Positions 2,394-48,879 of a DNA stretch of 64,000 nt are shown in pieces. How positions within the stretch are numbered: the first letter of the stretch is position 1; each line of letters starts with the position of its first letter. Both the position numbers and the translations under genes were made by a program. Source of the stretch: a virus; the IMG/VR virus record IMGVR_UViG_3300030101_003608, positions 46,526 to 110,525 of that record. One strand, 5' to 3'. The notes below the pieces were generated by a model. That model was not told where the DNA came from, ran no database searches, and saw only the letters and a program-made list of their open reading frames with translations.

Positions 2394-5300
2394 TATCTCT
2401 GACTTAATTGGGATTTAGTATTTACAATCTTTAGGATCATGTTTGTATTTCGTGAATCATCTCTAATTAACTTAACAAAGTTTAAGTAATGTCTAAACTT
2501 CTTTCTTTGTAGTAATGGTTTACTATAGTTAAGATTAAAGTCATTTAGATTTTTTACATAACCATTAGGTTCAGTAATCCATATATTATTTTGAGGATAA
2601 CTTCCTAAAAGTTCAGTTGTACCTGGAATTAATGGTCCTGTAGGAGGATAATCAGATCCTTGAGGAAACTCTCCTCTATCTTTAGTAATATCCCAGAACT
2701 GATTAAATCTATATTTGTTTTCTTCTTTTGAAAATAATATATCAAATGAAGCAAGGTTAGATCCTAGTTTAGGATATGTTTGAGATAAAGCTACATTATT
2801 CTTTGGGAATATATTTAAGTTAAGAATTCCTGAAGCCTGTTCTGAGTTACTAATTATAGCTTTATTAAAATTATAATCTAATACATGGAACTGATCGCTA
2901 CATAGTTGAATATCTTTTCTATAACATTCAAGAACATATTCAATACTTCTCATAGTGGTAACTGTTTGTCCCGTTGGTACAGGTATCTCTATTTCAAAAG
3001 GATATTGCACACCGTAAAAATTACAGTAATCATTACAAGCACTATTATGTTTCCATATACCATCTTTTTTAGTAGTAAGGAAATGTCCTTTACTTGGTAT
3101 GTATAAACCAGGGTTCCAATCATGGAATGAAATCCATAATTTATTTTTAGGATCATAACTTACTGTCCAAGACGCATCTTTAAAAAATCTAGAATCTCCT
3201 AATGTTATAGTATAATTAACTTGATCTTTTAATTTAAATCTATTTGTACTTGGGTCAAAATCAAGAATTCCTACAAATTCTTTTTTAACCATGAAGTCTC
3301 TTTTAGAAAAGTACAAAACAGAATTTGAGTTATCATAAGTTGCAGAACAGCCTATACCCGCTACAGGATTATTTGTATGAGGATAATTTGGAAACTCTTC
3401 TAAAAGCTTAAATGGTAAAAATTTATCAAACCACCACTTCATTCCAGTTTGAGATATCTCTTCTAGTTTTCCTGTATAAGCAAAGATTTTACCTTGCTCT
3501 TGTGATATAAAGTATATACCTGCTGGAGTAGATATTACAGAATATATATCTTGGCAAGAACCATATTGATAAGGTTGATCTGATACTACTACATTTTGAG
3601 GCGTAGTAGCAAATAATCCACCATCACCTATAGTAGCTTTAACTCCTAAATAAGTTTCTCTTTGATCTACACCTTGGAATACCAGAGGACTGTTATTTTT
3701 AAATGTAACTAACAAACCTGTTTTACCAAATGTCTTAACGGTATTTAATTCACTTTTAAAATCTACTTTATTCAAAGCCAAGAACATTAACCATGAATCA
3801 TAAGCTTCATGCTCTTGTAAAGGTTTTGAATATTGAATTCTATTTGGAAAACTTGTATAACACAGTTCAGCTGTTTCTGGATCATAATTAGTTCCTTGTA
3901 AAGCTCCATTATTGTAGTACTGACTAAATAAGAATCTTGACGCACTTAAAGAATAATCATATCTAAAAAAATTACCTTTGGTAAATATAGCAGGGTTCTG
4001 ACTAAACAATTGTTGCAGATCTGTAAACAACCATTTGTTATAAGACTTTTCTTCAGCACTTCTACCTGCAAATCTCCAGTCTGTAATTACTTCACTTTCT
4101 ACAAAGAAGTCTTTTATACCACTTACTGATGTATAGAAATATGAATTCTTTACACCTATTAAACCAGGATATCTAGTAACAAAATTAAATGCTTCATCAT
4201 AACCAAAAGGTGGAGGAGCGTCTAAGTTGTAATAAGATCTTGGAAATAATCCTTCACCTACACCAGAAGAACCCGCTTGAAATATATTTAGTAAGTTATC
4301 AAAATTTAGATCACTTATATCCCATCTATTGCTGTTAACCATAAATCTAGGTTCAGGAATCATTTGTCTTCTAAAATAATTAAACCTAGTATTATCTGGT
4401 TTATCATAAAGCCATTCATAGAAGAAAGGCATCATAGTTTTTTCAGTATGTCTTGTGACATAAGTATCTCCTCCAAAAAATGCAGGAGTGGTTTTTATTT
4501 TAGTATGTTCAAAACTTAAACTACCACAAACATTAGGAAGAGAGGATATTTGTATAGTATTAGGATCTGGCAAGTTTTCTCTAAAATCTATTCTTTGTTC
4601 ATGAGGAGTTGTCATAACTTGAATGATAGATCCTAGTTGTCTATATAAATTTCTAAATGTATATTTTAAACCTACATAATGACTTGCAATTATTGTTTCA
4701 AACTCATTTGATTTATTGTTTTCTCTAAAAGCTTCTCCATCTAAAAATAAATCTTTCCAACCTAAACCTATATCTTTTTGAACTAAACCTAAAGTCATAG
4801 AGGATTGGTCAACACTTTTAATAAACTGAAAGTTTATACCAGCAACACCGGTAGTAAGAAAGTTTGGACCATCTGGATTTTCATCATCATCTGTAGTTCT
4901 AAGTACAACTAATTCAGGTCTTAATAAATTATTTATTCTATAATTTACCTCACCATTATATGTTGAATAAGGAAAACTATAATTATAATTTTGAGCTTGA
5001 TATGTAGGAAACTGAAATACCTGATCTTTTACATATGATCCCACAGGTAATCTAAATCTATTTACATTATCCCAGTTTTCATTACTGTTTGAAGGGCGAA
5101 ATTTAGTATACTCACCATGACCAATTCCTTGAAGAGCATACTGCCTAGTTCTAACTATTGAATATAATACATCTACAGTATCTTTAGCTCCTTCTGCAAA
5201 ATAATATACAGACTGACCTAACATAGTGAACCCAGGAATAAGGTTACCTATAGCATTTGCGTTTGTAAAAATTGCAGGTAATAACTGGTATGCTGTGTAA

Positions 5301-7960
5301 GTTTTATCATATCCTGGTAATGTTAGTTGACCTGTTGCGCCACTAATTGCATTTGATGCTGCCGTTTGTGCAGTTACTAAACCGTTTCCACCAGCTATAA
5401 CATCAGTAAAAAATCCACCACCGTTAATATATCCAGGTAATGCCGTATTCATATATGTTCCTAATGATACATTACCTGCTACTAAACCTGTCAAACCACC
5501 AGGAAGAGCTGGAGGTCCAGGGGGAGGCCCTCCAGGATCTGGAAATGATAGACCTGTTGTACTACTTCCTGCCATTACAGGATATCTAGGAACAGTATAA
5601 TTTACTTCTGGATAGTTTATATTAAGCTCTCCCGTTACATTTAGAATTACATTAATTAAACCGCCTAATATAGTAATAAGCAATATTTCATTTCCAAGCA
5701 ATTTAAACTCTGGATGTTTTTCTGGTTCAATAAACTGTTGAACAGCTTTACCTTTTAAAAACCCATAAACTTTTAATTCAGATGCGGTAAGAGCGGGATT
5801 ATTATAACTTGTATCTGGTGAATGAAATGATTGTATGTCTATAGGAATATTTTGAGCTATTCTTTTACCATCCTTTGCAGCATCTGAGGGTACAGCTCTT
5901 CTAAGCATGAAAGGATCATTATATAAATAATCAGCACGACCTGTAAACACACCTTGATTAGCTCTAGGTATTAAACAGTTATATGGATAGTTTGCATAAA
6001 GACCTAGTGTAGGCGTATTATCAATACTTTCTGGGCTTCCCTTTATGCTATAGTTTCTAAAGTTATTTATCATACCTTTAGCTAGAATAGTTTTATTACC
6101 ATTTCTAGAACCTCTTAAAATTTCATATCCAACTACATTAGGAATATCATTACCATCATTATCTTTTGGCATAATGATATTCTTAAATCTTACTCCCATA
6201 AGTCTAATCTTAAACTGCCCGTCACTATTCTTTTTAAAGTGATAAGTAGATTCTGTTAAATCATTATCTGGAAACCTATGATGTCTTATAGGTTTTCCAC
6301 ATAAATCAAATCTACGACTAGGAGCATTAGGAGGATCATTAGTGGGTGGTAGAGGTACACCTGTCCAACACTGAGAACTAGAGTTCCATATTTCAGGTTG
6401 GTTATCAGGATAGAATTCACTTGACTGCCAGTAACCCATTTTACCAGCTGCAATTATTTGACCACCATCCTCTAATGGTTCTATAGCTGATGAAGTTTGT
6501 GTGGCTGTATTTAGTACATGAAAGATTTGATTGTCTTCATATAATGGAGTTGTACCTACACTGTTCTGATCATCAAGAGTAGCTATGTCTGTTGTTGATA
6601 CACCTGCCGGAGTTACATAATCTCCCGGAGGTCTACCCGGAATATGATATGATGCAGACTTATCCCCTGTATCATATACCCATCTTATGAAGAATGCATA
6701 TATCTCATCTCTTAAATAACCTGCATTCTTTCCTCCATCTGTATAATACTTTTCATCATATTCTACAGATACCCATTCTGCCTCAATTAAATTTGCTAAA
6801 GGTTGATAATTAAAATTAAATTTAGAAGTAGGTCCGATTCTTAATAGATAGTTGTTTGCAGAAAGCATTTGCTCTGATTTTTCAAACACATAATCTCTAT
6901 TTAAAATGGTTAATTTATCTACGGGTTCAAACTGATCATTAAATAAATCTACTATAACTCTTTTTGTTTTAGTTGAGTAAAAACCTATAATTTTGTTATC
7001 TTCATTTTGATTAGTAAACCTTACAACAACTAATTCAAATTCATCAAAAGCTTCTTCATCTACATCAATTTCTATATCTAAAGATCCTCTTAAATCTGGA
7101 TCATAATAAATAGGTTGAGGATGACCCACAGAAAAATAATTAGTTACCCTTACTTGATCTATAGTATATGCAATTGCTACTGCATAAGATCCATTAGGTA
7201 AGGATCCGGGTTGTTCTCCACGTTTAATATTAGTAGAAGGAGTTTTAAGCAATCTTGCTAATCTTAATTTATCACAATCTACTTTATTTGAATCTGGGTA
7301 AGTTTCACATGGATCTGGAGTTAATGGATTTTGTAAATCTTTCTCCCAAATCACTCCTGGCCATAATACTTGAGTAGCTCCATTTGTGTAGTAATTTACT
7401 GTAGCTGAACCTGGTTGACCATTCATGTATGTAAAAGGTTCGTCAATCCAAAGTTTTGGATCTCCAATATTCATATATCTATCAGGGTTAAAATTGTCAG
7501 CCCAATATACTTGCCATGAACAATTATCTAATAATCTAGATGCTCCTGTAATTAAATATAACTTATCAAAGTTTAAACATTTATCATTTACTATAACTCT
7601 ATATCTACAAGGATCTTCTTCAAATAATCCTATTTCAGATGCTATTACATTTGAACCTAGGGCATCATACTGTACACTGTATATTACCCACTTATCGCTA
7701 TATAAATGTATTGTACCAATAATATCTTTATTAGTACCTGTAGATGCAAACATTGCTTTAGCACATAAAGCATTTGACTCTTCATTAGAAACAGTTCCTA
7801 AATCTCCACTAGATGTATTATTGCTAGCATTTCTAGCATGTGTCCACATTCCAGCTTTTACAAAAGAAGGATCAGAATCTTTATTTAACCCTTTAATAAA
7901 AGTATTAGTTTGGACATTTCCTGTATTAGGAGTTTTTCCTTGTTTCCTTTGTTTAGCCAT
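2393..7960 (-). CDS. Tail muzzle / stabilization protein (crAss-like, P22 gp10-like)
   Basis: 1855 aa; N-terminal NTFIKGLNKD..WTHARNA and C-terminal SYDPKNKLWISFHDW typical of crAss-like muzzle proteins; follows ring genes. Confidence 0.8.
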   Translation of the reverse strand: MAKQRKQGKTPNTGNVQTNTFIKGLNKDSDPSFVKAGMWTHARNASNNTSSGDLGTVSNEESNALCAKAMFASTGTNKDIIGTIHLYSDKWVIYSVQYDALGSNVIASEIGLFEEDPCRYRVIVNDKCLNFDKLYLITGASRLLDNCSWQVYWADNFNPDRYMNIGDPKLWIDEPFTYMNGQPGSATVNYYTNGATQVLWPGVIWEKDLQNPLTPDPCETYPDSNKVDCDKLRLARLLKTPSTNIKRGEQPGSLPNGSYAVAIAYTIDQVRVTNYFSVGHPQPIYYDPDLRGSLDIEIDVDEEAFDEFELVVVRFTNQNEDNKIIGFYSTKTKRVIVDLFNDQFEPVDKLTILNRDYVFEKSEQMLSANNYLLRIGPTSKFNFNYQPLANLIEAEWVSVEYDEKYYTDGGKNAGYLRDEIYAFFIRWVYDTGDKSASYHIPGRPPGDYVTPAGVSTTDIATLDDQNSVGTTPLYEDNQIFHVLNTATQTSSAIEPLEDGGQIIAAGKMGYWQSSEFYPDNQPEIWNSSSQCWTGVPLPPTNDPPNAPSRRFDLCGKPIRHHRFPDNDLTESTYHFKKNSDGQFKIRLMGVRFKNIIMPKDNDGNDIPNVVGYEILRGSRNGNKTILAKGMINNFRNYSIKGSPESIDNTPTLGLYANYPYNCLIPRANQGVFTGRADYLYNDPFMLRRAVPSDAAKDGKRIAQNIPIDIQSFHSPDTSYNNPALTASELKVYGFLKGKAVQQFIEPEKHPEFKLLGNEILLITILGGLINVILNVTGELNINYPEVNYTVPRYPVMAGSSTTGLSFPDPGGPPPGPPALPGGLTGLVAGNVSLGTYMNTALPGYINGGGFFTDVIAGGNGLVTAQTAASNAISGATGQLTLPGYDKTYTAYQLLPAIFTNANAIGNLIPGFTMLGQSVYYFAEGAKDTVDVLYSIVRTRQYALQGIGHGEYTKFRPSNSNENWDNVNRFRLPVGSYVKDQVFQFPTYQAQNYNYSFPYSTYNGEVNYRINNLLRPELVVLRTTDDDENPDGPNFLTTGVAGINFQFIKSVDQSSMTLGLVQKDIGLGWKDLFLDGEAFRENNKSNEFETIIASHYVGLKYTFRNLYRQLGSIIQVMTTPHEQRIDFRENLPDPNTIQISSLPNVCGSLSFEHTKIKTTPAFFGGDTYVTRHTEKTMMPFFYEWLYDKPDNTRFNYFRRQMIPEPRFMVNSNRWDISDLNFDNLLNIFQAGSSGVGEGLFPRSYYNLDAPPPFGYDEAFNFVTRYPGLIGVKNSYFYTSVSGIKDFFVESEVITDWRFAGRSAEEKSYNKWLFTDLQQLFSQNPAIFTKGNFFRYDYSLSASRFLFSQYYNNGALQGTNYDPETAELCYTSFPNRIQYSKPLQEHEAYDSWLMFLALNKVDFKSELNTVKTFGKTGLLVTFKNNSPLVFQGVDQRETYLGVKATIGDGGLFATTPQNVVVSDQPYQYGSCQDIYSVISTPAGIYFISQEQGKIFAYTGKLEEISQTGMKWWFDKFLPFKLLEEFPNYPHTNNPVAGIGCSATYDNSNSVLYFSKRDFMVKKEFVGILDFDPSTNRFKLKDQVNYTITLGDSRFFKDASWTVSYDPKNKLWISFHDWNPGLYIPSKGHFLTTKKDGIWKHNSACNDYCNFYGVQYPFEIEIPVPTGQTVTTMRSIEYVLECYRKDIQLCSDQFHVLDYNFNKAIISNSEQASGILNLNIFPKNNVALSQTYPKLGSNLASFDILFSKEENKYRFNQFWDITKDRGEFPQGSDYPPTGPLIPGTTELLGSYPQNNIWITEPNGYVKNLNDFNLNYSKPLLQRKKFRHYLNFVKLIRDDSRNTNMILKIVNTKSQLSQR

Positions 7961-28837: not shown

Positions 28838-31054
28838 TTATTTAATATTTTTAAAGGCAGATCTTTTTATAGATTTGCCATTTATTTTCTTTCTTTTTCT
28901 ACCCATATGTCTGAACGGACTACTATTTAATTTAAACAAATTTTCTGACTTTTGCAACTTTTTGGCTGCATCATCTCTTATGATTTGCTTAGTGTAACCT
29001 CTATTAGATTCTTGTATTCTCATAAAAGATACAAGTGCTACAAATGATACTAATCTATCCACATTGACTCCGTCTGCATATTCTTGCATTTCTTTTATAA
29101 GCATTGGATCTGGAATTCTTTCTATTCCATAAGTTGTTTTGAGAACAGTTCCATCTTCTGCTGTTTCTTGATCAAGCTCTTCTCTTACAAACTCTATCCC
29201 ATAACTTAACAAGTGTGACTTAAATAATGTTCCTGTATTTTTCCATCCATATTCTTGGAATACATTCTTATTAGCACCTAAGTCTTTTAAAAACATTATT
29301 TGACTTTTAGGTACAAGATACTTTTGCTTCTTTCTGCTTATCATGTAGTTAATAAATAATGATATGTTATTCTCTATTACTGTCCACGCATTATACCATT
29401 CTATTATAAGCTCTAATCTTTGGTGTGTTTGCTTTATGTCATCAAACCTTCCGCACCAAGCAGCTACAATCTTACTTTGTTCAATATAAGTTTCTGTTTC
29501 AGTACCGGTTACTTTAGTAACCTCTATAGAGTTTTTCATTACATATATAGAACATAGTGAATCAGATGTTGTAGTTTTACCTTCAGCTACAGGGTCAATA
29601 GAAGCATAGTAGGTTCCAAAGTCTGGTTTTTCTTTATTTGGTCTTTCCCATACCACCAAACAGCCTGTTTTGTCTTCAGTCTTTTTATTTACAGGAAAAT
29701 CTTTTATAGGTTGTTTGTTACTTTTTACAACGCTAGGTTTACCATTAGCATCTGCAGATATATCTAGAAACTCATAGCCATATTCTTTTTCTTCTATTCT
29801 TCTTGCTTGTGCAGAAAGAAGATGTGTAGGAAATACAGAAACAGATCTATTATCAAACGCTTCTTTAATATTTCTTGGATGCTGAGATATTCTCAATTGA
29901 TAATCTTCTGGAGCTAGATCTCTTTTCCAATCATCAAATTGTTTTTGTAAAGCTGCAGTAGCTTCTTCTACTTTAGAATTACCATACTCATCTATGTGCG
30001 GAGGCATTGACCATTGTTCAGGAATAAATAAACCTGACATACCTTCAGTACCTTTATGATCAATCAAATTAGTTTCTACAGCATAAACATCTTTAGAAGT
30101 TGGATTAAGTATCATATCCTTAAGTGGATTACATTGTGACAAATCACCCACAGATCCTGCTGCTATAAATAATCCAGTAGTAGTAAGCCCTGATCTCATT
30201 GCTGGTCTCATATACTCATATGTCTTATCCATCTTAGGTGCAATTCCTGCCTCCTCATGAAAGAAGTATTTAACTGGACCCCCTACACCATTTGTTGGAT
30301 CTTTCTCAAATGACATGCCTTGTATAGTTCCTTTAAGCCCTACTTCTGTTTTTCTGTTACCTTTCCTAACTTCAATCTTTTGTTGCCACATCATTACCTT
30401 ACTAGGATTCATTGGTCTATACCATGCAGTATGTTCATTTAAGAATGCAGCATACTCATCTAAGAACTTCCAAGATCCTTTCTCATTGATGTAATCTTTA
30501 AGACTAGCGCCTATTTTTAATGTTACCCCCGATTCAAACCATTGCTGATTTATAAGCTTTGCCATATGATAATAAGAAGAAGCTATCTGACGTTTCTTTA
30601 ATATAGCAACATGTTTATAATTTAACTCTGCTAGTACTTCATATAATGCCATGTGATATTGAGCATCTCTAATATCAGCAAATCCAAATCTTTGTATTTC
30701 TTTATTAAAGATTGGTAAAAAGTTTAGCCACATATAATAGTCTCTAGCTATGTACCAAGTTTTATCTTTTGTTTTAAATATTACTCCTTTTCTACATTTC
30801 TTTTTTTCACTTTCCCAGTAATTAATAAAATCTCTTGATTTAAATGGAGCTGCACAATAAAATCCTTGTTTGTTAAATCTACTAGCTTCTGCATTAAATT
30901 CTGCAGAAGTTTTATCAAAGTCATACTGACCAGGTTCTTTAAATAAATCTCTTACATAAGTAGCAAAGTCTTCTCTACTGTCAAAGTCTGTACTGGTCCA
31001 TGTACCATTGTCCCATGTAGGAATATCCTGATATATCTCTGTATCATTGGTCAT
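28838..31054 (-). CDS. Terminase large subunit
   Basis: LKKRQIASSY (Walker A-like), FFHEEAG (Walker B), ASIDPV nuclease Asp, NVDRLV. Confidence 0.9.
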   Translation of the reverse strand: MTNDTEIYQDIPTWDNGTWTSTDFDSREDFATYVRDLFKEPGQYDFDKTSAEFNAEASRFNKQGFYCAAPFKSRDFINYWESEKKKCRKGVIFKTKDKTWYIARDYYMWLNFLPIFNKEIQRFGFADIRDAQYHMALYEVLAELNYKHVAILKKRQIASSYYHMAKLINQQWFESGVTLKIGASLKDYINEKGSWKFLDEYAAFLNEHTAWYRPMNPSKVMMWQQKIEVRKGNRKTEVGLKGTIQGMSFEKDPTNGVGGPVKYFFHEEAGIAPKMDKTYEYMRPAMRSGLTTTGLFIAAGSVGDLSQCNPLKDMILNPTSKDVYAVETNLIDHKGTEGMSGLFIPEQWSMPPHIDEYGNSKVEEATAALQKQFDDWKRDLAPEDYQLRISQHPRNIKEAFDNRSVSVFPTHLLSAQARRIEEKEYGYEFLDISADANGKPSVVKSNKQPIKDFPVNKKTEDKTGCLVVWERPNKEKPDFGTYYASIDPVAEGKTTTSDSLCSIYVMKNSIEVTKVTGTETETYIEQSKIVAAWCGRFDDIKQTHQRLELIIEWYNAWTVIENNISLFINYMISRKKQKYLVPKSQIMFLKDLGANKNVFQEYGWKNTGTLFKSHLLSYGIEFVREELDQETAEDGTVLKTTYGIERIPDPMLIKEMQEYADGVNVDRLVSFVALVSFMRIQESNRGYTKQIIRDDAAKKLQKSENLFKLNSSPFRHMGRKRKKINGKSIKRSAFKNIK

Positions 31055-43413: not shown

Positions 43414-44136
43414 TTAATTTAAAAGATTTATATGACCTATGATTTGCTTTTTATTACCCATTACATCACTATATACTACGACATATACATATGCTCCGCT
43501 TAAACTATTACCCGACCAGCCCTCTTCTAAGCTGTATGTTTCAAAAACTATATTGTTCCATCTATCATAAATAACCCAATGAAAATCTACTATTCCGTTT
43601 CCTATAGCTTTAATTACATCATTAGAGTTATCATCATTTGGTGTAAAAGCATTAGGTATGTACAGAGACACATCACATTCTATACCCATCTTAATATACC
43701 CACTATAAACTTTGTAAGGTACATTACCCCCGCATACACTAGATGAAAGAACAGACATGTCTAGATCTAACTCATCACAACTTTCTTTTGTAACAGCTTG
43801 TACACAAAATGAACGTATGCAAGATCCAGTAAAATCCCAATCACCAGGAAAGAAACTAAAATACCACCCATTATCTAACCAGACCCAGTCACCCTCTGTA
43901 GTAACAGAACAATTAGTAGGAGTATCTATAGGCATGATAGTATCCCATCCAGATCCTGGGATAACCACCATAGACTGAAGCATGCACTCATGACCCCCGA
44001 ACCAATCAGCTATCTCATAACACAAAGTAACAGTATCCCCAGAGTAATAATACTCAGAATAAGGATCTACAGAACTACTCTCTGTTTGACCAAAGCAAGT
44101 TAAAGGCACAATAAGCAGTAAGAGTCTTAGCAACAT
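43414..44136 (-). CDS. Secreted protein with T9SS type B (gliding motility-associated) C-terminal domain
   Basis: N-terminal signal peptide; C-terminal LYIPNAFTPNDDNSND..IYDRW..VFE..GW.G..GAYVY..GHINLL. Confidence 0.85.
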   Translation of the reverse strand: MLLRLLLLIVPLTCFGQTESSSVDPYSEYYYSGDTVTLCYEIADWFGGHECMLQSMVVIPGSGWDTIMPIDTPTNCSVTTEGDWVWLDNGWYFSFFPGDWDFTGSCIRSFCVQAVTKESCDELDLDMSVLSSSVCGGNVPYKVYSGYIKMGIECDVSLYIPNAFTPNDDNSNDVIKAIGNGIVDFHWVIYDRWNNIVFETYSLEEGWSGNSLSGAYVYVVVYSDVMGNKKQIIGHINLLN

Positions 44137-44329
44137 ACCTAAATATAAGAATTTTCCCCTTAAGGAAAAAATACCATGTTAGAGGTTGTAGTGGATCCTA
44201 TGCTGCAGCACCCCACCCCTCAACAGCTTTGGTGCACACCCCCTATGTTTTTAAAACAAAAAACATTTTTTTGCAAAAAGAATTCCTAATTTTTTTGACT
44301 GCTGAATGTTTGCTATGCCTACTACCTAT

Positions 44330-44354
44330 CCTAGCCTATAACTTGAATTGAATT
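44330..44354 (+). promoter_or_regulatory. Early promoter-like motif copy 1 (CTAGCC-N11-TTGAAT)
   Basis: CCTAGCC TATAACTTGAA TTGAATT, 16 nt before ATG 44371. Confidence 0.7.
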
Positions 44355-44370
44355 AATAAATTAAAGTACT

Positions 44371-44553
44371 ATGAAATATAATTGGAAGAAACATGTCAGA
44401 GATTCATCAAAGAAGAATTCTAACAAAAGATTGTGTAAGATGATTAATCAAAGATTAAGTCATTTAAGATGTTATGAGAATCAATTCTTAACTCAACAAA
44501 ATGCTGAGTTGAAGGAATTGCTTAGTGATGTTGAACTAAAACTGAGGGAGTAA
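44371..44553 (+). CDS. Early hypothetical protein
   Basis: 60 aa, flanked by promoter motif and terminator. Confidence 0.65.
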   Translation: MKYNWKKHVRDSSKKNSNKRLCKMINQRLSHLRCYENQFLTQQNAELKELLSDVELKLRE

Positions 44554-44570
44554 ATCCCTCTTTTTTATTT
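44544..44570 (+). terminator. Intrinsic terminator
   Basis: GAGGGA/TCCCTC stem plus U-tract. Confidence 0.7.
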
Positions 44571-44571
44571 C

Positions 44572-44596
44572 CCTAGCCTTTAACTTATATTGAATT
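44572..44596 (+). promoter_or_regulatory. Early promoter-like motif copy 2
   Basis: CCTAGCC TTTAACTTATA TTGAATT. Confidence 0.7.
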
Positions 44597-44611
44597 ATAA
44601 ATAATTACAAT

Positions 44612-44815
44612 ATGAAAGTTATACCACATAATGCTTTATACTTTATTATAAATAAAAGAACTATAAAGCTATTATCTCTATGCCAAGTATCTTGGTTCTA
44701 TGCTTACCGCAATTATGAAGAGTTTAAATATGGCTACAAACATATATGTGTTGTAGACCAACCCTTCATTAACACGTTTAACATTGTTAAACAGAAATAT
44801 CTTAAAGAACAATAA
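44612..44815 (+). CDS. Early hypothetical protein
   Basis: 67 aa between motif and terminator. Confidence 0.6.
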   Translation: MKVIPHNALYFIINKRTIKLLSLCQVSWFYAYRNYEEFKYGYKHICVVDQPFINTFNIVKQKYLKEQ

Positions 44816-44838
44816 AGAGGTTTACACCTCTTTTTTTT
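44814..44838 (+). terminator. Intrinsic terminator
   Basis: AAAGAGGT/ACCTCTTT stem plus U-tract. Confidence 0.7.
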
Positions 44839-44841
44839 CTT

Positions 44842-44866
44842 CCTAGCCCTTAAATTATATTGAATT
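44842..44866 (+). promoter_or_regulatory. Early promoter-like motif copy 3
   Basis: CCTAGCC CTTAAATTATA TTGAATT. Confidence 0.7.
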
Positions 44867-44880
44867 AAAAATTAAATATT

Positions 44881-45246
44881 ATGAAAACAATTACATTACT
44901 TATTTTCAAACTCCTACTAGATGCAGGAGTTGTTGTCCCAATGAATCAAACAAATGATGGTAGAGAACTCTACACATTATTCCCAAATGCAAACTCAGTT
45001 GCCTTTGAAGGCATAGGGCTAACCATCATTGATGCCCAAGAAGAGGGCACATACAATGATGCTGATGAATCATTAGCCTTTCTATACCTTGATGAATCAA
45101 TGCGTCTGCAAGAACTACCTACTGATGATACCAGTAGAGCAGTTATGTTTGACCATTGTTACAAGGGAGAAATACTAAACTGGATTCAAACACTAGAATT
45201 CTCATACAATGAGAAATTCCCTGATGAACCAGTAAAGGCTGAATAA
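44881..45246 (+). CDS. Early hypothetical protein
   Basis: 121 aa, acidic. Confidence 0.65.
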   Translation: MKTITLLIFKLLLDAGVVVPMNQTNDGRELYTLFPNANSVAFEGIGLTIIDAQEEGTYNDADESLAFLYLDESMRLQELPTDDTSRAVMFDHCYKGEILNWIQTLEFSYNEKFPDEPVKAE

Positions 45247-45256
45247 GCCTTTTTTC
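45234..45256 (+). terminator. Intrinsic terminator
   Basis: AAAGGCT/AGCCTTT stem plus U-tract. Confidence 0.65.
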
Positions 45257-45260
45257 TTTC

Positions 45261-45285
45261 CCTAGCCCAAATATTATAATGAATT
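45261..45285 (+). promoter_or_regulatory. Early promoter-like motif copy 4
   Basis: CCTAGCC CAAATATTATA ATGAATT. Confidence 0.65.
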
Positions 45286-45299
45286 TAAATTAATTAATT

Positions 45300-45431
45300 A
45301 TGAAGCATCTACAACAATATGTGCAAGCACTAATTATTGCACATGGAAAGCCTGTTAGATTACCTAACAGACAATTGACCATTGGCCAAGCCAATTTGAC
45401 TAAAGTCAAGAAGAAAAAGAAAAGGGATTAA
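45300..45431 (+). CDS. Early small basic protein, 43 aa
   Basis: Below ORF cutoff: MKHLQQYVQALIIAHGKPVRLPNRQLTIGQANLTKVKKKKKRD; between motif copy 4 and a terminator. Confidence 0.6.
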   Translation: MKHLQQYVQALIIAHGKPVRLPNRQLTIGQANLTKVKKKKKRD

Positions 45432-45443
45432 ACCCTTTTTTTT
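45421..45443 (+). terminator. Intrinsic terminator
   Basis: AAAGGG/CCCTTT stem plus long U-tract. Confidence 0.65.
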
Positions 45444-45482
45444 CTTTACCCTTCTTTGTCTTCGCAGCTAAAGCTGCTCAGA

Positions 45483-45507
45483 CCTAGCCTTAATATTGTA
45501 TTGCAAT
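45483..45507 (+). promoter_or_regulatory. Early promoter-like motif copy 5
   Basis: CCTAGCC TTAATATTGTA TTGCAAT. Confidence 0.6.
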
Positions 45508-45537
45508 ATTGCAATATAACCACTTAAATCTAAAATT

Positions 45538-46083
45538 GTGGAAAATCCAAATTTAACATTTTATGCTACGTTTTACAAAACTACCATAACAGGTAAGCAT
45601 CTCTTCAAAGTTCACGGAACTGATGAAGAAATTAACTCTTATGTTGAACATCTCAAAAAGAGAGGTGCAACAAAGATTTCATATTTAACCCAAAGTGACC
45701 AAAAGACACTTGTGTTAAATGAGAATGGACAAAAAGTTCCTTTGCACTTTTCACAGGATAAACCTGTTTCAAAGTTGCTAAATGAACGTTACCCTATGGT
45801 TACCACCCAAACAGGTGTTAACAAGGGGTCCATTAATCCTGACCTTAGATTAATCAAATTCGTTAATGATGCCATTAAAGAATATGGACCATCTAACTTA
45901 GACTTCTGCATATCAGAAGCAAGAACAAGTCTTGCTCATGCTATTGCACAAGACTATCAGGATACTGAAGAGTCTTCTCCTTCCCAAGAAGAAGAATCTC
46001 CAGTTACTGAAGAATCTACTGTTGATACTAAAAGTATCATCAATAAGATTGCTTCAGGTACAAAGAAGAAGAGCAAGTCTTAA
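45538..46083 (+). CDS. Early hypothetical protein (GTG start)
   Basis: 181 aa with S/E-rich linker and basic tail. Confidence 0.65.
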   Translation: MENPNLTFYATFYKTTITGKHLFKVHGTDEEINSYVEHLKKRGATKISYLTQSDQKTLVLNENGQKVPLHFSQDKPVSKLLNERYPMVTTQTGVNKGSINPDLRLIKFVNDAIKEYGPSNLDFCISEARTSLAHAIAQDYQDTEESSPSQEEESPVTEESTVDTKSIINKIASGTKKKSKS

Positions 46084-46095
46084 TCTTTGTGAATC

Positions 46096-46132
46096 AACAA
46101 GGGATCATAGATCCTTTGTTGTTTCTTTTTTC
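46096..46132 (+). terminator. Intrinsic terminator
   Basis: AACAAGGGATC/GATCCTTTGTT stem plus U-rich tail. Confidence 0.65.
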
Positions 46133-46149
46133 TTTAAAACCCTCTTTTT

Positions 46150-46174
46150 GCTAGCCATCAACTTACGTTGATGT
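46150..46174 (+). promoter_or_regulatory. Early promoter-like motif copy 6 (no ORF downstream)
   Basis: GCTAGCC ATCAACTTACG TTGATGT; same 11-nt spacing. Confidence 0.55.
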
Positions 46175-46258
46175 CATTTTGCAATACCAAAACCACAGCC
46201 AAAAGTGGATTGCAAATTTTATTTGGCTTGCTTTTTAACTAAAAGCAAAGACATCAGC
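46167..46258 (+). ncRNA. Candidate ~92-nt three-way-junction small RNA
   Basis: Closing stem GTTGATGTC/GACATCAGC; arms TTTGCAAT/ATTGCAAA (with CCAC/GTGG) and TTGCTTTT/AAAAGCAA; starts where motif copy 6 would initiate. Confidence 0.5.
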
Positions 46259-46609
46259 ACAAATAGTTGCAAAACTGAAAACTGAAAGCTAGTTATCAAT
46301 GTTTTGTAATTGTTTTGCGGAAATACTTGTGTGTTTTAATCTTTATAAGATAGTACAACATATACCTATATCATTGGTTGTAAGTATAAATTATTATTTC
46401 TCTATAGTATATAGTATATATAATATTTTATATAGCTAACTTTGTTGTAAAACAGATGTTAGTTTACCTTATACAGTATTAGTACTCTCTCTATATAGAG
46501 GAAGAGCATATGAGTTTCCCGATTTAATTAATAAGGTTAATCCATTAAGGGATTATTAAATGATATCCGTATGTGAAGATGCCTTATTATTATATTACTG
46601 CTTAAGTAG

Positions 46610-47015
46610 GCGTTGGTAGGTCTCGCAGGGTTGATCACCTAAATTCTACCACTAAAGACATAGGAAGTTCCTTTATACTATAACAGACAAAAGAATTACT
46701 TCCCGTCTTTATTACACCAAAAAATGGTATCCTAGGGAAAGACCTGGGTTGAGGTAGCGCCTCTGGATGGTGGATTAAAACCAAAGTGTCAGTTCCTGTT
46801 TTAAACCTAAAACAGAGAAGAGATGCTATTGTACAGAGTTTGAAAGTAAATCAGACAATTATACTGACCGTCTTACTGTGGTCTCTGTTGTGATAGTGTG
46901 TCGTGGGAGTTAAATGGCTGAAAATCCCGTTTTAGAGTAGGCCGAGAGTAGAGAAGATATAAAGTGTTCCTTTTACACAACTAAAAGATATTACACTTCA
47001 TCTTCTTTACTCTTA
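46610..47015 (+). ncRNA. Candidate structured RNA / long leader of the 47045 gene
   Basis: ORF-free, GC-enriched, at least seven hairpins, including two covarying copies of one motif (46653-46711, 46945-47013). Confidence 0.5.
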
Positions 47016-47044
47016 TTTTTTCACTTATTAATACTTATTGAATT

Positions 47045-48844
47045 ATGGCAAATTTTGCTGAACTTCGTTTATTTGGTCAAGCACTGAGAAAGACCAATGC
47101 TTCTGACACAGTTAACTCTGTACTTGTTAGAACTTGTGCATCTAAAGGATATGTTATGCGTATTGGATGTGATCCTGAAAGAGTAATGTCTTATATGCAG
47201 TCGTTACCAAACAATTATAATTCTACTTTCTATAAATCATTTAATGATGTTATTAATAGAAGTGAAGAAGCATGGTGGGTAGACCAGTGTATGCATTATG
47301 CATCTACATATGGTACAGGTCATACAGATACACCTTATGTTCCTAATAATAATCCTAGTCTAATTAACTTTTCTGAATGTAAGGTTATTGATCCTATTAC
47401 AATGGAAGAGCTTCATGATAAAATCCAAAATATGGCAGATTCAGGTATTGCTCTTAAGAATGATACTCTGAATGATATCTTCGAGTTAATTGAAGAGTTT
47501 GATATGTCATTTTGGACTGATAATATTAAGAACCGTGAGTTCTTGATTAGATATCATATTGCAAAAGGTATACCTTTTAAGAATGTAATTGAATCATTAC
47601 AAGCTATTAACTTTATCATTACTGGTAGCACTTGTATTGTTAAAAGTCATGATGCAATGAATGCGTATAGTTGTTCTAGTTCTTGGGATAGGTTTTCTAA
47701 TATCAAGGCATGTTTTTATTCACATTCTTTAGAAGAATGGGCAAGTATCTTCAATAGATATAAGCCCTTGTTTCTTGCTTTGAGAAATAGTGAGTTGAGA
47801 CCTATGATTAACAAGATATCTAAGTTATCTAAGAAACATCACGTTCCTACTGTTATGCCTATGAGTACAAAGTTCTTGACTCCTGAATATGTTAACAATG
47901 ATAAGTTAACTTTTCAGTCAAGACTTTGGTTACGTAAGTATGAGGATAGATCTTTATTTGAACTTGTAAAGTATTACAATGCTATACAAAAAAGAAGAAC
48001 AGGAAAGTTTATTGATACAATTAATATCAGAAATGGTAAAAGTTGGGTTAAAAAGAGTTCTTGGGAGCTTAATGAAGATAACTTGGATAAACTTAACAGT
48101 CAGGTTAGACGTTCAATATCTCATAAGATGAGAGAGAAATTACAAGGTAAAACTTTAAATCTCCCTTCTGGCTTAGGCATTACTCTTCCTACATCAGAAA
48201 AGAATTTCATTGGTACATTACCTATTGGTTCTTATATTGATGTTATGCCTCAAGATAATCTCATTGTTGGGATTTATTGGAAAGGTGAGGATGGTGCAAG
48301 CGATCTTGACTTGTCATTTACTGATATAGATGGTAAAACTATCTCTTGGTGTAATTCATACACTGATGCGGGTAATAACATTGTCTATTCAGGTGATATG
48401 ACATCTGCTGATCCTGAAGCTTCAGAGTATTTATTGTTCCGTAATGATATGCCTAATGGTATATTTATGTGTAACAATTATTCTGGTGCATCAGAAGCAA
48501 AGTATACATTTATTGTTGCTAGACTTCCTGAAGGTGAGAGTTTTAATACAAATCATATGGTACATCCAGATGATATTATATTTCAAACTCCTATGGTTAT
48601 GAGAAGTAATCAAATGTCTATGGCTATCCATATTGGTAGTAGATTTATCTTTACTGATAGAGCTATTGGCAATGGTAGAGTTGCTAGAGCAGGTGTTACT
48701 ACTCGTGACCTAATTCAGAGTCAAATTGAGATGGCAGATATGTCATTGACATTGAATGAATTTATAGATCATACTGAACTTGATGGTGAAGTAGTAGATC
48801 TAACTACTGATGACAAGTCAGCTTTAATTAGCTTATTGTCATAA
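47045..48844 (+). CDS. Large protein with helical N-terminal region and TerD-like C-terminal domain
   Basis: NSTFYKSF..QCMHYASTYG N-terminus; C-terminal GIYW..DLDLS..YSGDMTSA...ASEY resembles TerD-fold Ca-binding motifs. Confidence 0.6.
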   Translation: MANFAELRLFGQALRKTNASDTVNSVLVRTCASKGYVMRIGCDPERVMSYMQSLPNNYNSTFYKSFNDVINRSEEAWWVDQCMHYASTYGTGHTDTPYVPNNNPSLINFSECKVIDPITMEELHDKIQNMADSGIALKNDTLNDIFELIEEFDMSFWTDNIKNREFLIRYHIAKGIPFKNVIESLQAINFIITGSTCIVKSHDAMNAYSCSSSWDRFSNIKACFYSHSLEEWASIFNRYKPLFLALRNSELRPMINKISKLSKKHHVPTVMPMSTKFLTPEYVNNDKLTFQSRLWLRKYEDRSLFELVKYYNAIQKRRTGKFIDTINIRNGKSWVKKSSWELNEDNLDKLNSQVRRSISHKMREKLQGKTLNLPSGLGITLPTSEKNFIGTLPIGSYIDVMPQDNLIVGIYWKGEDGASDLDLSFTDIDGKTISWCNSYTDAGNNIVYSGDMTSADPEASEYLLFRNDMPNGIFMCNNYSGASEAKYTFIVARLPEGESFNTNHMVHPDDIIFQTPMVMRSNQMSMAIHIGSRFIFTDRAIGNGRVARAGVTTRDLIQSQIEMADMSLTLNEFIDHTELDGEVVDLTTDDKSALISLLS

Positions 48845-48851
48845 GACTACT

Positions 48852-48879
48852 GAGCAGGATGTAAAAGTCCTGCTCTTTT
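48852..48879 (+). terminator. Intrinsic terminator
   Basis: GAGCAGGAT/GTCCTGCTC stem plus TTTT. Confidence 0.75.

Follow-up and report, generated by a model that had tools for sequence, protein, structure and literature searches.

The window, i.e. the whole 64,000-nt stretch analysed here (bases 46526-110525 of an IMG/VR virus record), belongs to an uncultured, marine, crAss-like phage, identified by the Pfam families of the Crassvirus major capsid and muzzle proteins, with a genome of 110.5 kb and a GC content of ~32%. A blastn search against the INPHARED phages gave no match. Comparisons were made with the IMG/VR phage L009, with L002, L004, L010, L011 and L035, and with marine metagenome loci. 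Two gene arms diverge at ~44136/44371. The first gene of the leftward arm (43414-44136, - strand, 240 aa) possesses a type IX secretion CTD (CHU_C, E 8.5e-10), which points to a Bacteroidota host. At the divergence of the arms lies a GC-rich island (44160-44330), in which runs of C give way to an A/T-rich tract with GAATTCC at its end. The island shares 84% identity with L002 and L004, can also be recognised in L009 and L035, and may represent a terminus of the genome or a site for packaging or regulation. The locus stands at the head of the replication-gene arm, close to the minimum of the cumulative GC skew, and contains five short early ORFs, each behind a copy of a promoter-like motif, a sixth copy followed by an ORF-less spacer 1.7-2.7 kb from the divergence point, and a gene of 599 aa. 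Its features are:

44331, 44573, 44843, 45262 and 45484 (span 44331-45504), + strand: five motif copies, each before a short early ORF
46095-46131, + strand: 12-bp hairpin (46095-46121) with a T-rich run, the intrinsic terminator behind the 181-aa early gene
46151-46171, + strand: motif copy 6, from pattern match and comparison
46167-46258, + strand: three-way junction (Y), from the MFE fold and from covariation at the equivalent position in relatives
46247-46269, + strand: sequence-conserved patch AAAGACAyCAG..CAAATAGTyAG, from alignment and variant listing
46261-46316, + strand: second domain, a long A/U-rich imperfect hairpin (46261-46284 with 46290-46315)
46314-46534, + strand: non-coding block A, conserved, AT-rich, with TATAG repeats
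46647-47044, + strand: non-coding block B, with a stable fold (z -4.9)
47045-48844, + strand: 599-aa gene, the first ORF after copy 6
48852-48879, + strand: putative terminator of the sixth cassette, an 8-bp GC-rich hairpin with TTTT, read from the sequence

The CTAGCC-N11-TTGA motif

Exact matches to CTAGCC-N11-TTGA are found four times in the window (44331, 44573, 44843 and 46151; 0.07 expected), and copies with two mismatches are located at 45262 and 45484. These six are the only copies in the whole genome, all on the + strand and within 1.85 kb (44331-46171); the sole other match with two mismatches, at 29122, lacks the CTAGCC core. Copies 1-5 precede ORF starts by 38-40 nt (four copies) or 54 nt (one copy), and the ORFs that they head encode 60, 67, 121, 43 and 181 aa. 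Upstream of copies 2-4 lies a terminator hairpin with a T-run, upstream of copy 5 a T-run together with a separate conserved hairpin, GCAGCT-AA-AGCTGC. The terminator directly before copy 6 is the strongest and is kept in all metagenome variants. The arrangement described in the original prediction, five copies before early ORFs and a sixth after a terminator, is thus borne out by the pattern scan and by the hairpin at 46095-46121. An inverted repeat, CATCAAC-TTAC-GTTGATG (46156-46173; 7-bp stem, 4-nt loop), overlaps copy 6 and is absent from the other five copies, as well as from the consensus of 60 other unique motif copies.

In relatives the motif is present in 73 unique copies with the consensus T-rich tract, then CTAGCC..TT....TTGAAT, and CTAGCC occurs 101 times on the gene (+) strand versus 6 times on the other (-). 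An ORF-opening ATG follows at 38-40 nt in 37 of the relatives' copies and at 54-58 nt in 10, while 10 are without an ORF. The motif behaves as a phage-specific start signal. The number of copies, the strand bias and the fixed 38-40 nt to the ATG support its proposed role as an early promoter, and the ORF-less copy is itself letter-conserved. From the fixed distance to the ATG, and from a conservation that reaches TTGAAT, we infer a transcription start in the TTGA box or at or just after it, near 46167-46170.

Two further features of the motif copies were observed. Between the box of copy 5 and the 181-aa gene (45484-45537) lies a perfect 14-bp palindrome, TTGCAATATTGCAA (45501-45514), which is kept, as such or as a near-copy, in all relatives and looks like an operator, perhaps an autoregulatory one. 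Other ORF-less cassettes with the same motif occur at L009:1474-1712 and L056:4169-4400; one of them enters an AT-rich tract, the other comprises ~60 nt and ends in a strong 15-bp terminator hairpin (z -3.8).

The fold downstream of copy 6

The MFE fold of 46167-46258 (-27.4 kcal/mol, z -3.74, 0 of 200 shuffles as good, MFE frequency 0.26) is exactly the structure drawn in the original prediction, with a 9-bp closing stem and two arms. The closing stem, P1, pairs 46167-46175 with 46250-46258. Arm 1 pairs 46178-46185 with 46209-46216 and contains an inner 4-bp helix (46193-46196 with 46205-46208), and arm 2 pairs 46228-46235 with 46241-46248. P1 meets competing pairings once upstream DNA enters the fold, and a start a few bases 3' of TTGA would prevent P1 from forming in the RNA. 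The patch at 46247-46269, which gives the 3' strand of P1 in the window, is the sole conserved sequence in the variable 150 nt. The hairpin of the second domain ends in a T-run (46313-46316) directly 5' of block A, and a T-run of 4-9 nucleotides is present at this position in all variants.

No consensus terminator was detected at 46258, at 46316 or anywhere between 46172 and 47044, nor at the equivalent site in L071 and L068. The fold had been predicted to be a discrete RNA of ~92 nt. Since no terminator lies at 46258, and a second hairpin and a T-run continue up to 46316, it is likelier to be the 5'-terminal domain of a long transcript, either a leader or a non-coding RNA; most likely, the Y fold forms the front of a non-coding leader of ~900 bases rather than a free-standing sRNA of 92 bases.

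Searches for known RNA families were negative. The whole window gave no match to Rfam 15 at gathering thresholds, which answers the check proposed with the prediction in the negative; at E <= 5, the region 46000-47100 returned four chance-level matches (best E 0.5, 29 bits versus a cut-off of 60). ARAGORN found no tRNA or tmRNA in the window, the module has no CRISPR-repeat-like match, and a search for antisense targets in the phage's own genome gave chance-level words only. A hammerhead-like reading of the junction was rejected, as the UGAUG is located inside the closing helix and not in the junction and no Rfam match was obtained.

Variation and covariation in relatives

The 23-mer spanning copy 6 is identical in L009, whose homologue of the 599-aa protein is merely 44% identical, and in 17 marine metagenome loci. 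The latter reduce to ~14 distinct versions of at least seven types, in all of which the upstream terminator, the motif of copy 6 (letter-identical) and block A downstream are kept. Between types, the ~140 nt from copy 6 to block A share 23-36% ungapped identity; in the closer types B, C and G, the flanking genes retain 67-86% identity at their four-fold degenerate sites. Within a type (L061, L070), the RNA region changes no faster than the genes. The divergence between types, combined with a gene-like rate at most within a type, argues for replacement of types rather than for steady rapid drift.

The distance from copy 6 to block A is 162-166 nt in 12 of the 14 versions. Most versions fold as two domains, a closing helix around two hairpins and then a long helix. 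The closing helix consists of (GT)TGATGTC and a complement 50-75 nt downstream, and P1 starts at 46167-46169 in most types. Arm 1 begins at the same nucleotide with at least six different stems among the variants. The second helix pairs an A-rich with a U-rich strand and has its T-run at the end, just 5' of block A. When tested against dinucleotide shuffles, the P1 duplex stands out significantly in types A, B and C but not in D, E or F, and arm 1 does so in types A, B and D. The variants share no conserved loop sequence, and their P1 stems show no conserved bulge.

MAFFT with RNAalifold recovered part of arm 2 only, the alignment not being structure-aware, and was replaced by a hand-specified structure and a covariance model. 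The model, seeded on types B and F from 69-nt versions, found type D at the same site; it misses the window's own 92-nt version and types C, E and G. In the model-fitted alignment of six sequences (A8), 93.4% of cells pair, versus 83.3% when shuffled (0/500), and seven pairs are changed on both sides (4/500); slid partners pair at 35-45%. Covariation thus supports the same Y shape in these relatives.

Fold energies and substitutions differ between the strands. Folds of the + strand are more stable than those of the - strand by 6 kcal/mol on average, and in 11 of the 14 versions. Five substitutions separate the window from L061 and L070; four are in stems, and all four keep the pairing on the + strand. 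Three of these four produce G-U pairs on the + strand that would be C-A mismatches on the - strand, which favours an RNA made from the + strand.

In L002 and L004, which are the nearest relatives when judged by the 599-aa gene, another promoter motif stands at the same 38-nt spacing, and the equivalent 143 nt form no stable fold (z +1.3). The module is therefore either dispensable or specific to a lineage. The expected conservation of the fold accordingly holds in part: a Y fold starting from the TTGA box recurs with compensatory changes, but not in L002 and L004. Taken together, we propose that the ~150-nt module is selected for shape and length and not for sequence.

The spacer and the 599-aa gene

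As originally stated, no ORF follows the sixth copy: on the + strand, none exceeds 46 aa between 46084 and 47044 (~960 nt), and 878 nt 3' of copy 6 pass without an ORF before the 599-aa gene begins at 47045. The motif does not recur downstream of copy 6 anywhere in the genome. The transcript probably runs into blocks A and B and into the 599-aa gene.

Block A holds TATATAGCTAAC (46429-46445), common to L002, L004, L009 and L035 and thus including lineages with another early motif. In the window, TATATAGCTAAC continues with TTTG, and the resulting TAACTTTG fits the Bacteroidota -7 box TAnnTTTG; it may be a second, host-type promoter inside the spacer. If present, a promoter of its own in block A would make the downstream RNA independent of copy 6. 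Block B shares 95-97% identity with L002 and L004, has a nearly invariant core and is more conserved than the adjacent gene, which is merely 78-95% identical to the same relatives at the protein level. It contains a hairpin motif twice (46653-46711 and 46945-47013), the stems of which differ yet stay paired. The same is seen in L009 and L035, where the hairpins have compensatory changes.

In several relatives the spacer carries Hatchet ribozymes (RF02678, 81-87 bits). In L009, L064 and L071 they occupy the + strand of the interval from copy 6 to the gene homologue; in L010 and L011 they lie on the gene strand, upstream of the homologue of the 599-aa gene. Their positions, all on the gene strand, are:

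L009:3653-3790, Hatchet (RF02678)
L011:571-708, Hatchet (RF02678)
L010:460-597, Hatchet (RF02678)
L064:3535-3693, Hatchet (RF02678)
L071:4717-4878, Hatchet (RF02678)

At the gathering threshold, Hatchet is absent from the window, L002 and L004, and the spacer of the window yields none even at E <= 5. The ribozymes of the relatives mark the spacer as an RNA locus in this phage group. The Y module is separate from the ribozyme position and upstream of it.

The 599-aa gene is likely the coding payload of the sixth cassette. The C-terminal domain of its product is TerD-like (TerD chains at Z 9.7-10.7), and Foldseek against the PDB returned the TerD domain only. The N-terminal domain is helical; its longest structural alignments are with Ro60 chains (9l5y, 2nvo; 196-223 residues) at Z 6.0-6.4, which is within noise for helical repeats. 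The protein matches no Pfam family. More than 1300 metagenome homologues exist, and hypothetical proteins of the cyanophages S-CRM01 and S-CBWM1 are 25-29% identical. A reading as a TROVE/Ro60 protein finds no support in sequence: Pfam TROVE has no match in the genome, and hhalign against crAss001 Gp96 gives a probability of 1.8%; the structural rows are weak.

Interpretation

The 599-aa gene with a terminator of its own, the Hatchets of the relatives and the structured blocks suggest as the simplest cassette promoter 6, an 878-nt structured leader, the gene and the terminator. We give about an even chance to an account in which the Y module works in cis on a long early leader, forming a structural cap at its 5' end and attenuating it weakly. 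Copy 6 would then open a sixth early cassette composed of the promoter, a non-coding leader of ~880 nt, the TerD-like gene and the terminator. With transcription starting in or at the TTGA box (~46167-46170), the extreme 5' end of the RNA would be sealed into P1 of the three-way junction, and the long A/U-rich hairpin with its U-run (46261-46316) would come next. The resulting module of ~150 nt would cap the 5' end, protecting and insulating the long leader, and the U-run would attenuate weakly: some transcripts would end as an RNA of ~150 nt, and most would continue into block A, block B and the gene. The non-conserved loops fit such a shape-only role. The total length of the module, fixed despite varying helix sizes, is explained neither by a role in RNA stability nor by any other reading at the RNA level alone.

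The same module could instead be a stand-alone early sRNA of ~150 nt (46167 to ~46316) that ends at the U-run and acts in trans, e.g. as a decoy or anti-defence RNA or as a specificity determinant in several allelic types, which amounts to the original idea with a longer 3' end. Its layout of promoter, payload and T-run resembles that of copies 1-5, its payload is constant at ~150 nt, and the T-run of 4-9 stands at the same place in every variant; moreover, relatives possess ORF-less cassettes at L009:1614 (60 nt between the promoter and a strong terminator) and L035:2770 (the promoter, then a hairpin and T7). The low identity between types (23-36%, versus 67-86% at four-fold sites in B, C and G) also speaks for it, being suggestive of a replacement of types as in arms-race loci. 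The T-run is, however, preceded by a long, A/U-rich and imperfect hairpin, and no terminator is called there in the window, L071 or L068. Neither a conserved loop nor a bulge is offered that a protein or a target could read, no antisense target was found in the phage genome, the module is absent from L002 and L004, and Rfam, tRNA and CRISPR-repeat-like matches are lacking; we regard an sRNA acting in trans as unlikely. The ideas of a decoy and of a protein ligand in particular are left unsupported by the non-conserved loops, by L002 and L004 without a stable fold and by the missing Rfam and tRNA matches. In a farther-reading version, which we hold to be rather unlikely, the module would be a free early sRNA in at least seven interchangeable types between invariant flanks, turning over faster than synonymous sites while retaining shape and exact length. 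It would then serve crAss-like phages in an arms race, or in specificity, at the level of RNA, e.g. as a decoy against defence or as a partner, matched by type, of the 181-aa early protein, which is equally variable; its synthesis would fall to the injected virion RNA polymerase, at a promoter now open to definition.

Two further readings place the function in the DNA. One is a transcription-activated replication origin or a start of primer RNA, where copy 6 fires into the hairpins and the AT-rich, TATAG-repeat block A, the duplex opens, and the hairpins matter as single-stranded DNA or primer. It would accommodate the spacing of 162-166 bp between promoter and block A, fixed though helix sizes vary, and the retention of an AT-rich, repeat-containing block A also in lineages whose promoter motif differs. 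In vitro, the crAss virion RNA polymerase accepts single-stranded DNA as a template, and the locus heads the replication-gene arm near the GC-skew minimum; this skew switch, however, coincides with the switch in gene direction and is uninformative alone. Against an origin, G-U pairs give the + strand the advantage both in fold energy and in the substitutions, the Hatchet ribozymes and the covarying hairpins further downstream are signs of functional RNA from the same strand, and no iterons or initiator-binding repeats were identified, which makes it a doubtful and quite unlikely explanation. The other reading takes the hairpins as operator repeats, i.e. protein-binding DNA sites of an early regulator 3' of the promoter. 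The type present in the window has three TTGCAA palindromic half-sites in arm 1 and the second domain, the same TTGCAA forms the conserved palindrome in copy 5, and it occurs five times in 45480-46320 versus 0.58 expected (P ~3e-4, post hoc). Other types, however, build their stems from other sequences (TTTGTC/GACAAA, TTGGCA/TGCCAA, TTGGCT/AGCCAA), the half-sites lie 2 to 23 nt apart, a spread that a dimeric binder would not tolerate, and the substitutions that preserve G-U pairs argue for RNA; binding sites of this kind are improbable.

The start of infection in crAss-like phages is poorly understood: no promoter has been defined for the injected giant RNA polymerase, and no role has been assigned to the early non-coding RNAs of phi14:2. 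The locus supplies a sharply defined candidate promoter, the sixth copy of which is tied to a structured RNA instead of a gene. Its natural variants form a built-in mutational series, in which flanks and length are the same and helices differ. The position of the early start, a control of leader stability or read-through by the Y cap and a regulation of the TerD-like gene by the leader all become testable. If the module is only a structural cap, it would constitute a modest addition to known 5' stabilisers.

Comparison with known systems

Stabilisers at the 5' terminus of mRNAs include the hairpin in the ompA 5' UTR and the 5' stabiliser of Bacillus phage SP82. The proposed cap shares with them a helix on the first nucleotides of the transcript (predicted here), shape over sequence, and a position ahead of a long RNA. 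The known 5' stabilisers are, to our knowledge, single hairpins; in contrast, the window possesses a three-way junction and a second long hairpin with a fixed total length. The put RNAs of phage HK022 consist of two stem-loops just 3' of early promoters and render RNA polymerase terminator-resistant. Two adjoining hairpins directly after an early promoter, an action in cis and a long early transcript that must pass terminator-like signals would be common to both, but put is conserved in sequence and acts on the host RNA polymerase, whereas the hairpin sequences of the module are free to differ between types.

Coliphage N4 has hairpin promoters read by an injected virion RNA polymerase (PMC4496689). 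The window phage likewise belongs to phages that inject a giant RNA polymerase, and copy 6 holds a 7-bp stem with a 4-nt loop in its motif. In contrast to N4, a hairpin does not belong to every early promoter, as the other five copies lack the inverted repeat, and the crAss polymerase is unrelated to the N4 enzyme.

The crAss-like phage crAss001 encodes a TROVE protein, Gp96, in an early operon (PMC8375218). The window resembles Ro60/Y RNA systems (Rsr-YrlA) in a predicted stem that closes the 5' and 3' ends of the putative RNA and in a neighbouring large early protein with a helical-repeat domain, but the C-terminal domain of that protein is TerD-like and not vWA, and no Y RNA or YrlA match is obtained from Rfam. 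As a separate observation, crAss001 (L073, MH675552) contains a tRNA-model match of 144 nt (6454-6597, - strand, 46.6 bits) in an unannotated gap of ~900 nt, ~270 nt downstream of Gp96; this could represent either a tRNA carrying an insert or a Y RNA of tRNA-like form that partners the TROVE protein.

Non-coding phage spacers bearing Hatchet ribozymes have been described (Rfam RF02678; Weinberg et al. 2015; Li et al. 2015, PMC4604424). Relatives with an identical copy 6 (L009, L064, L071) carry a Hatchet on the + strand of the same spacer, in contrast to the window, which has none; the Y module is distinct from the ribozyme.

A precedent is offered by the Cellulophaga crAss-like phage phi14:2, where, at an equivalent position in the genome, the g004-g005 and g005-g006 intergenic regions give rightward non-coding RNA from the earliest time point, persistent and above most genes (10.1101/2020.03.07.982082). 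Both phages are marine and have, on the early-gene strand and a few kb from the start of the rightward early arm, a long stretch devoid of ORFs, which lies at 2904-4602 in phi14:2. The two stretches have no detectable sequence similarity (blastn, word size 7, nothing beyond chance), and transcription is shown for phi14:2 and predicted for the spacer of the window. The gap of phi14:2 also contains a tmRNA gene, which the window lacks: in phi14:2 (L072, NC_021806), ARAGORN places a tmRNA with the tag GSSVQKLAMVA* at 4031-4500, inside the g004-g006 gap, and part of the reported 'long non-coding RNA' may therefore be a phage tmRNA. For the early transcripts of phi14:2, made by the virion RNA polymerase, no common upstream motif was reported (10.1101/2020.03.07.982082), so the CTAGCC-type class is not described there; the lineage of the window, in contrast, has a sharp one. 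The element would belong to the early non-coding RNAs or structured leaders made by crAss-like phages.
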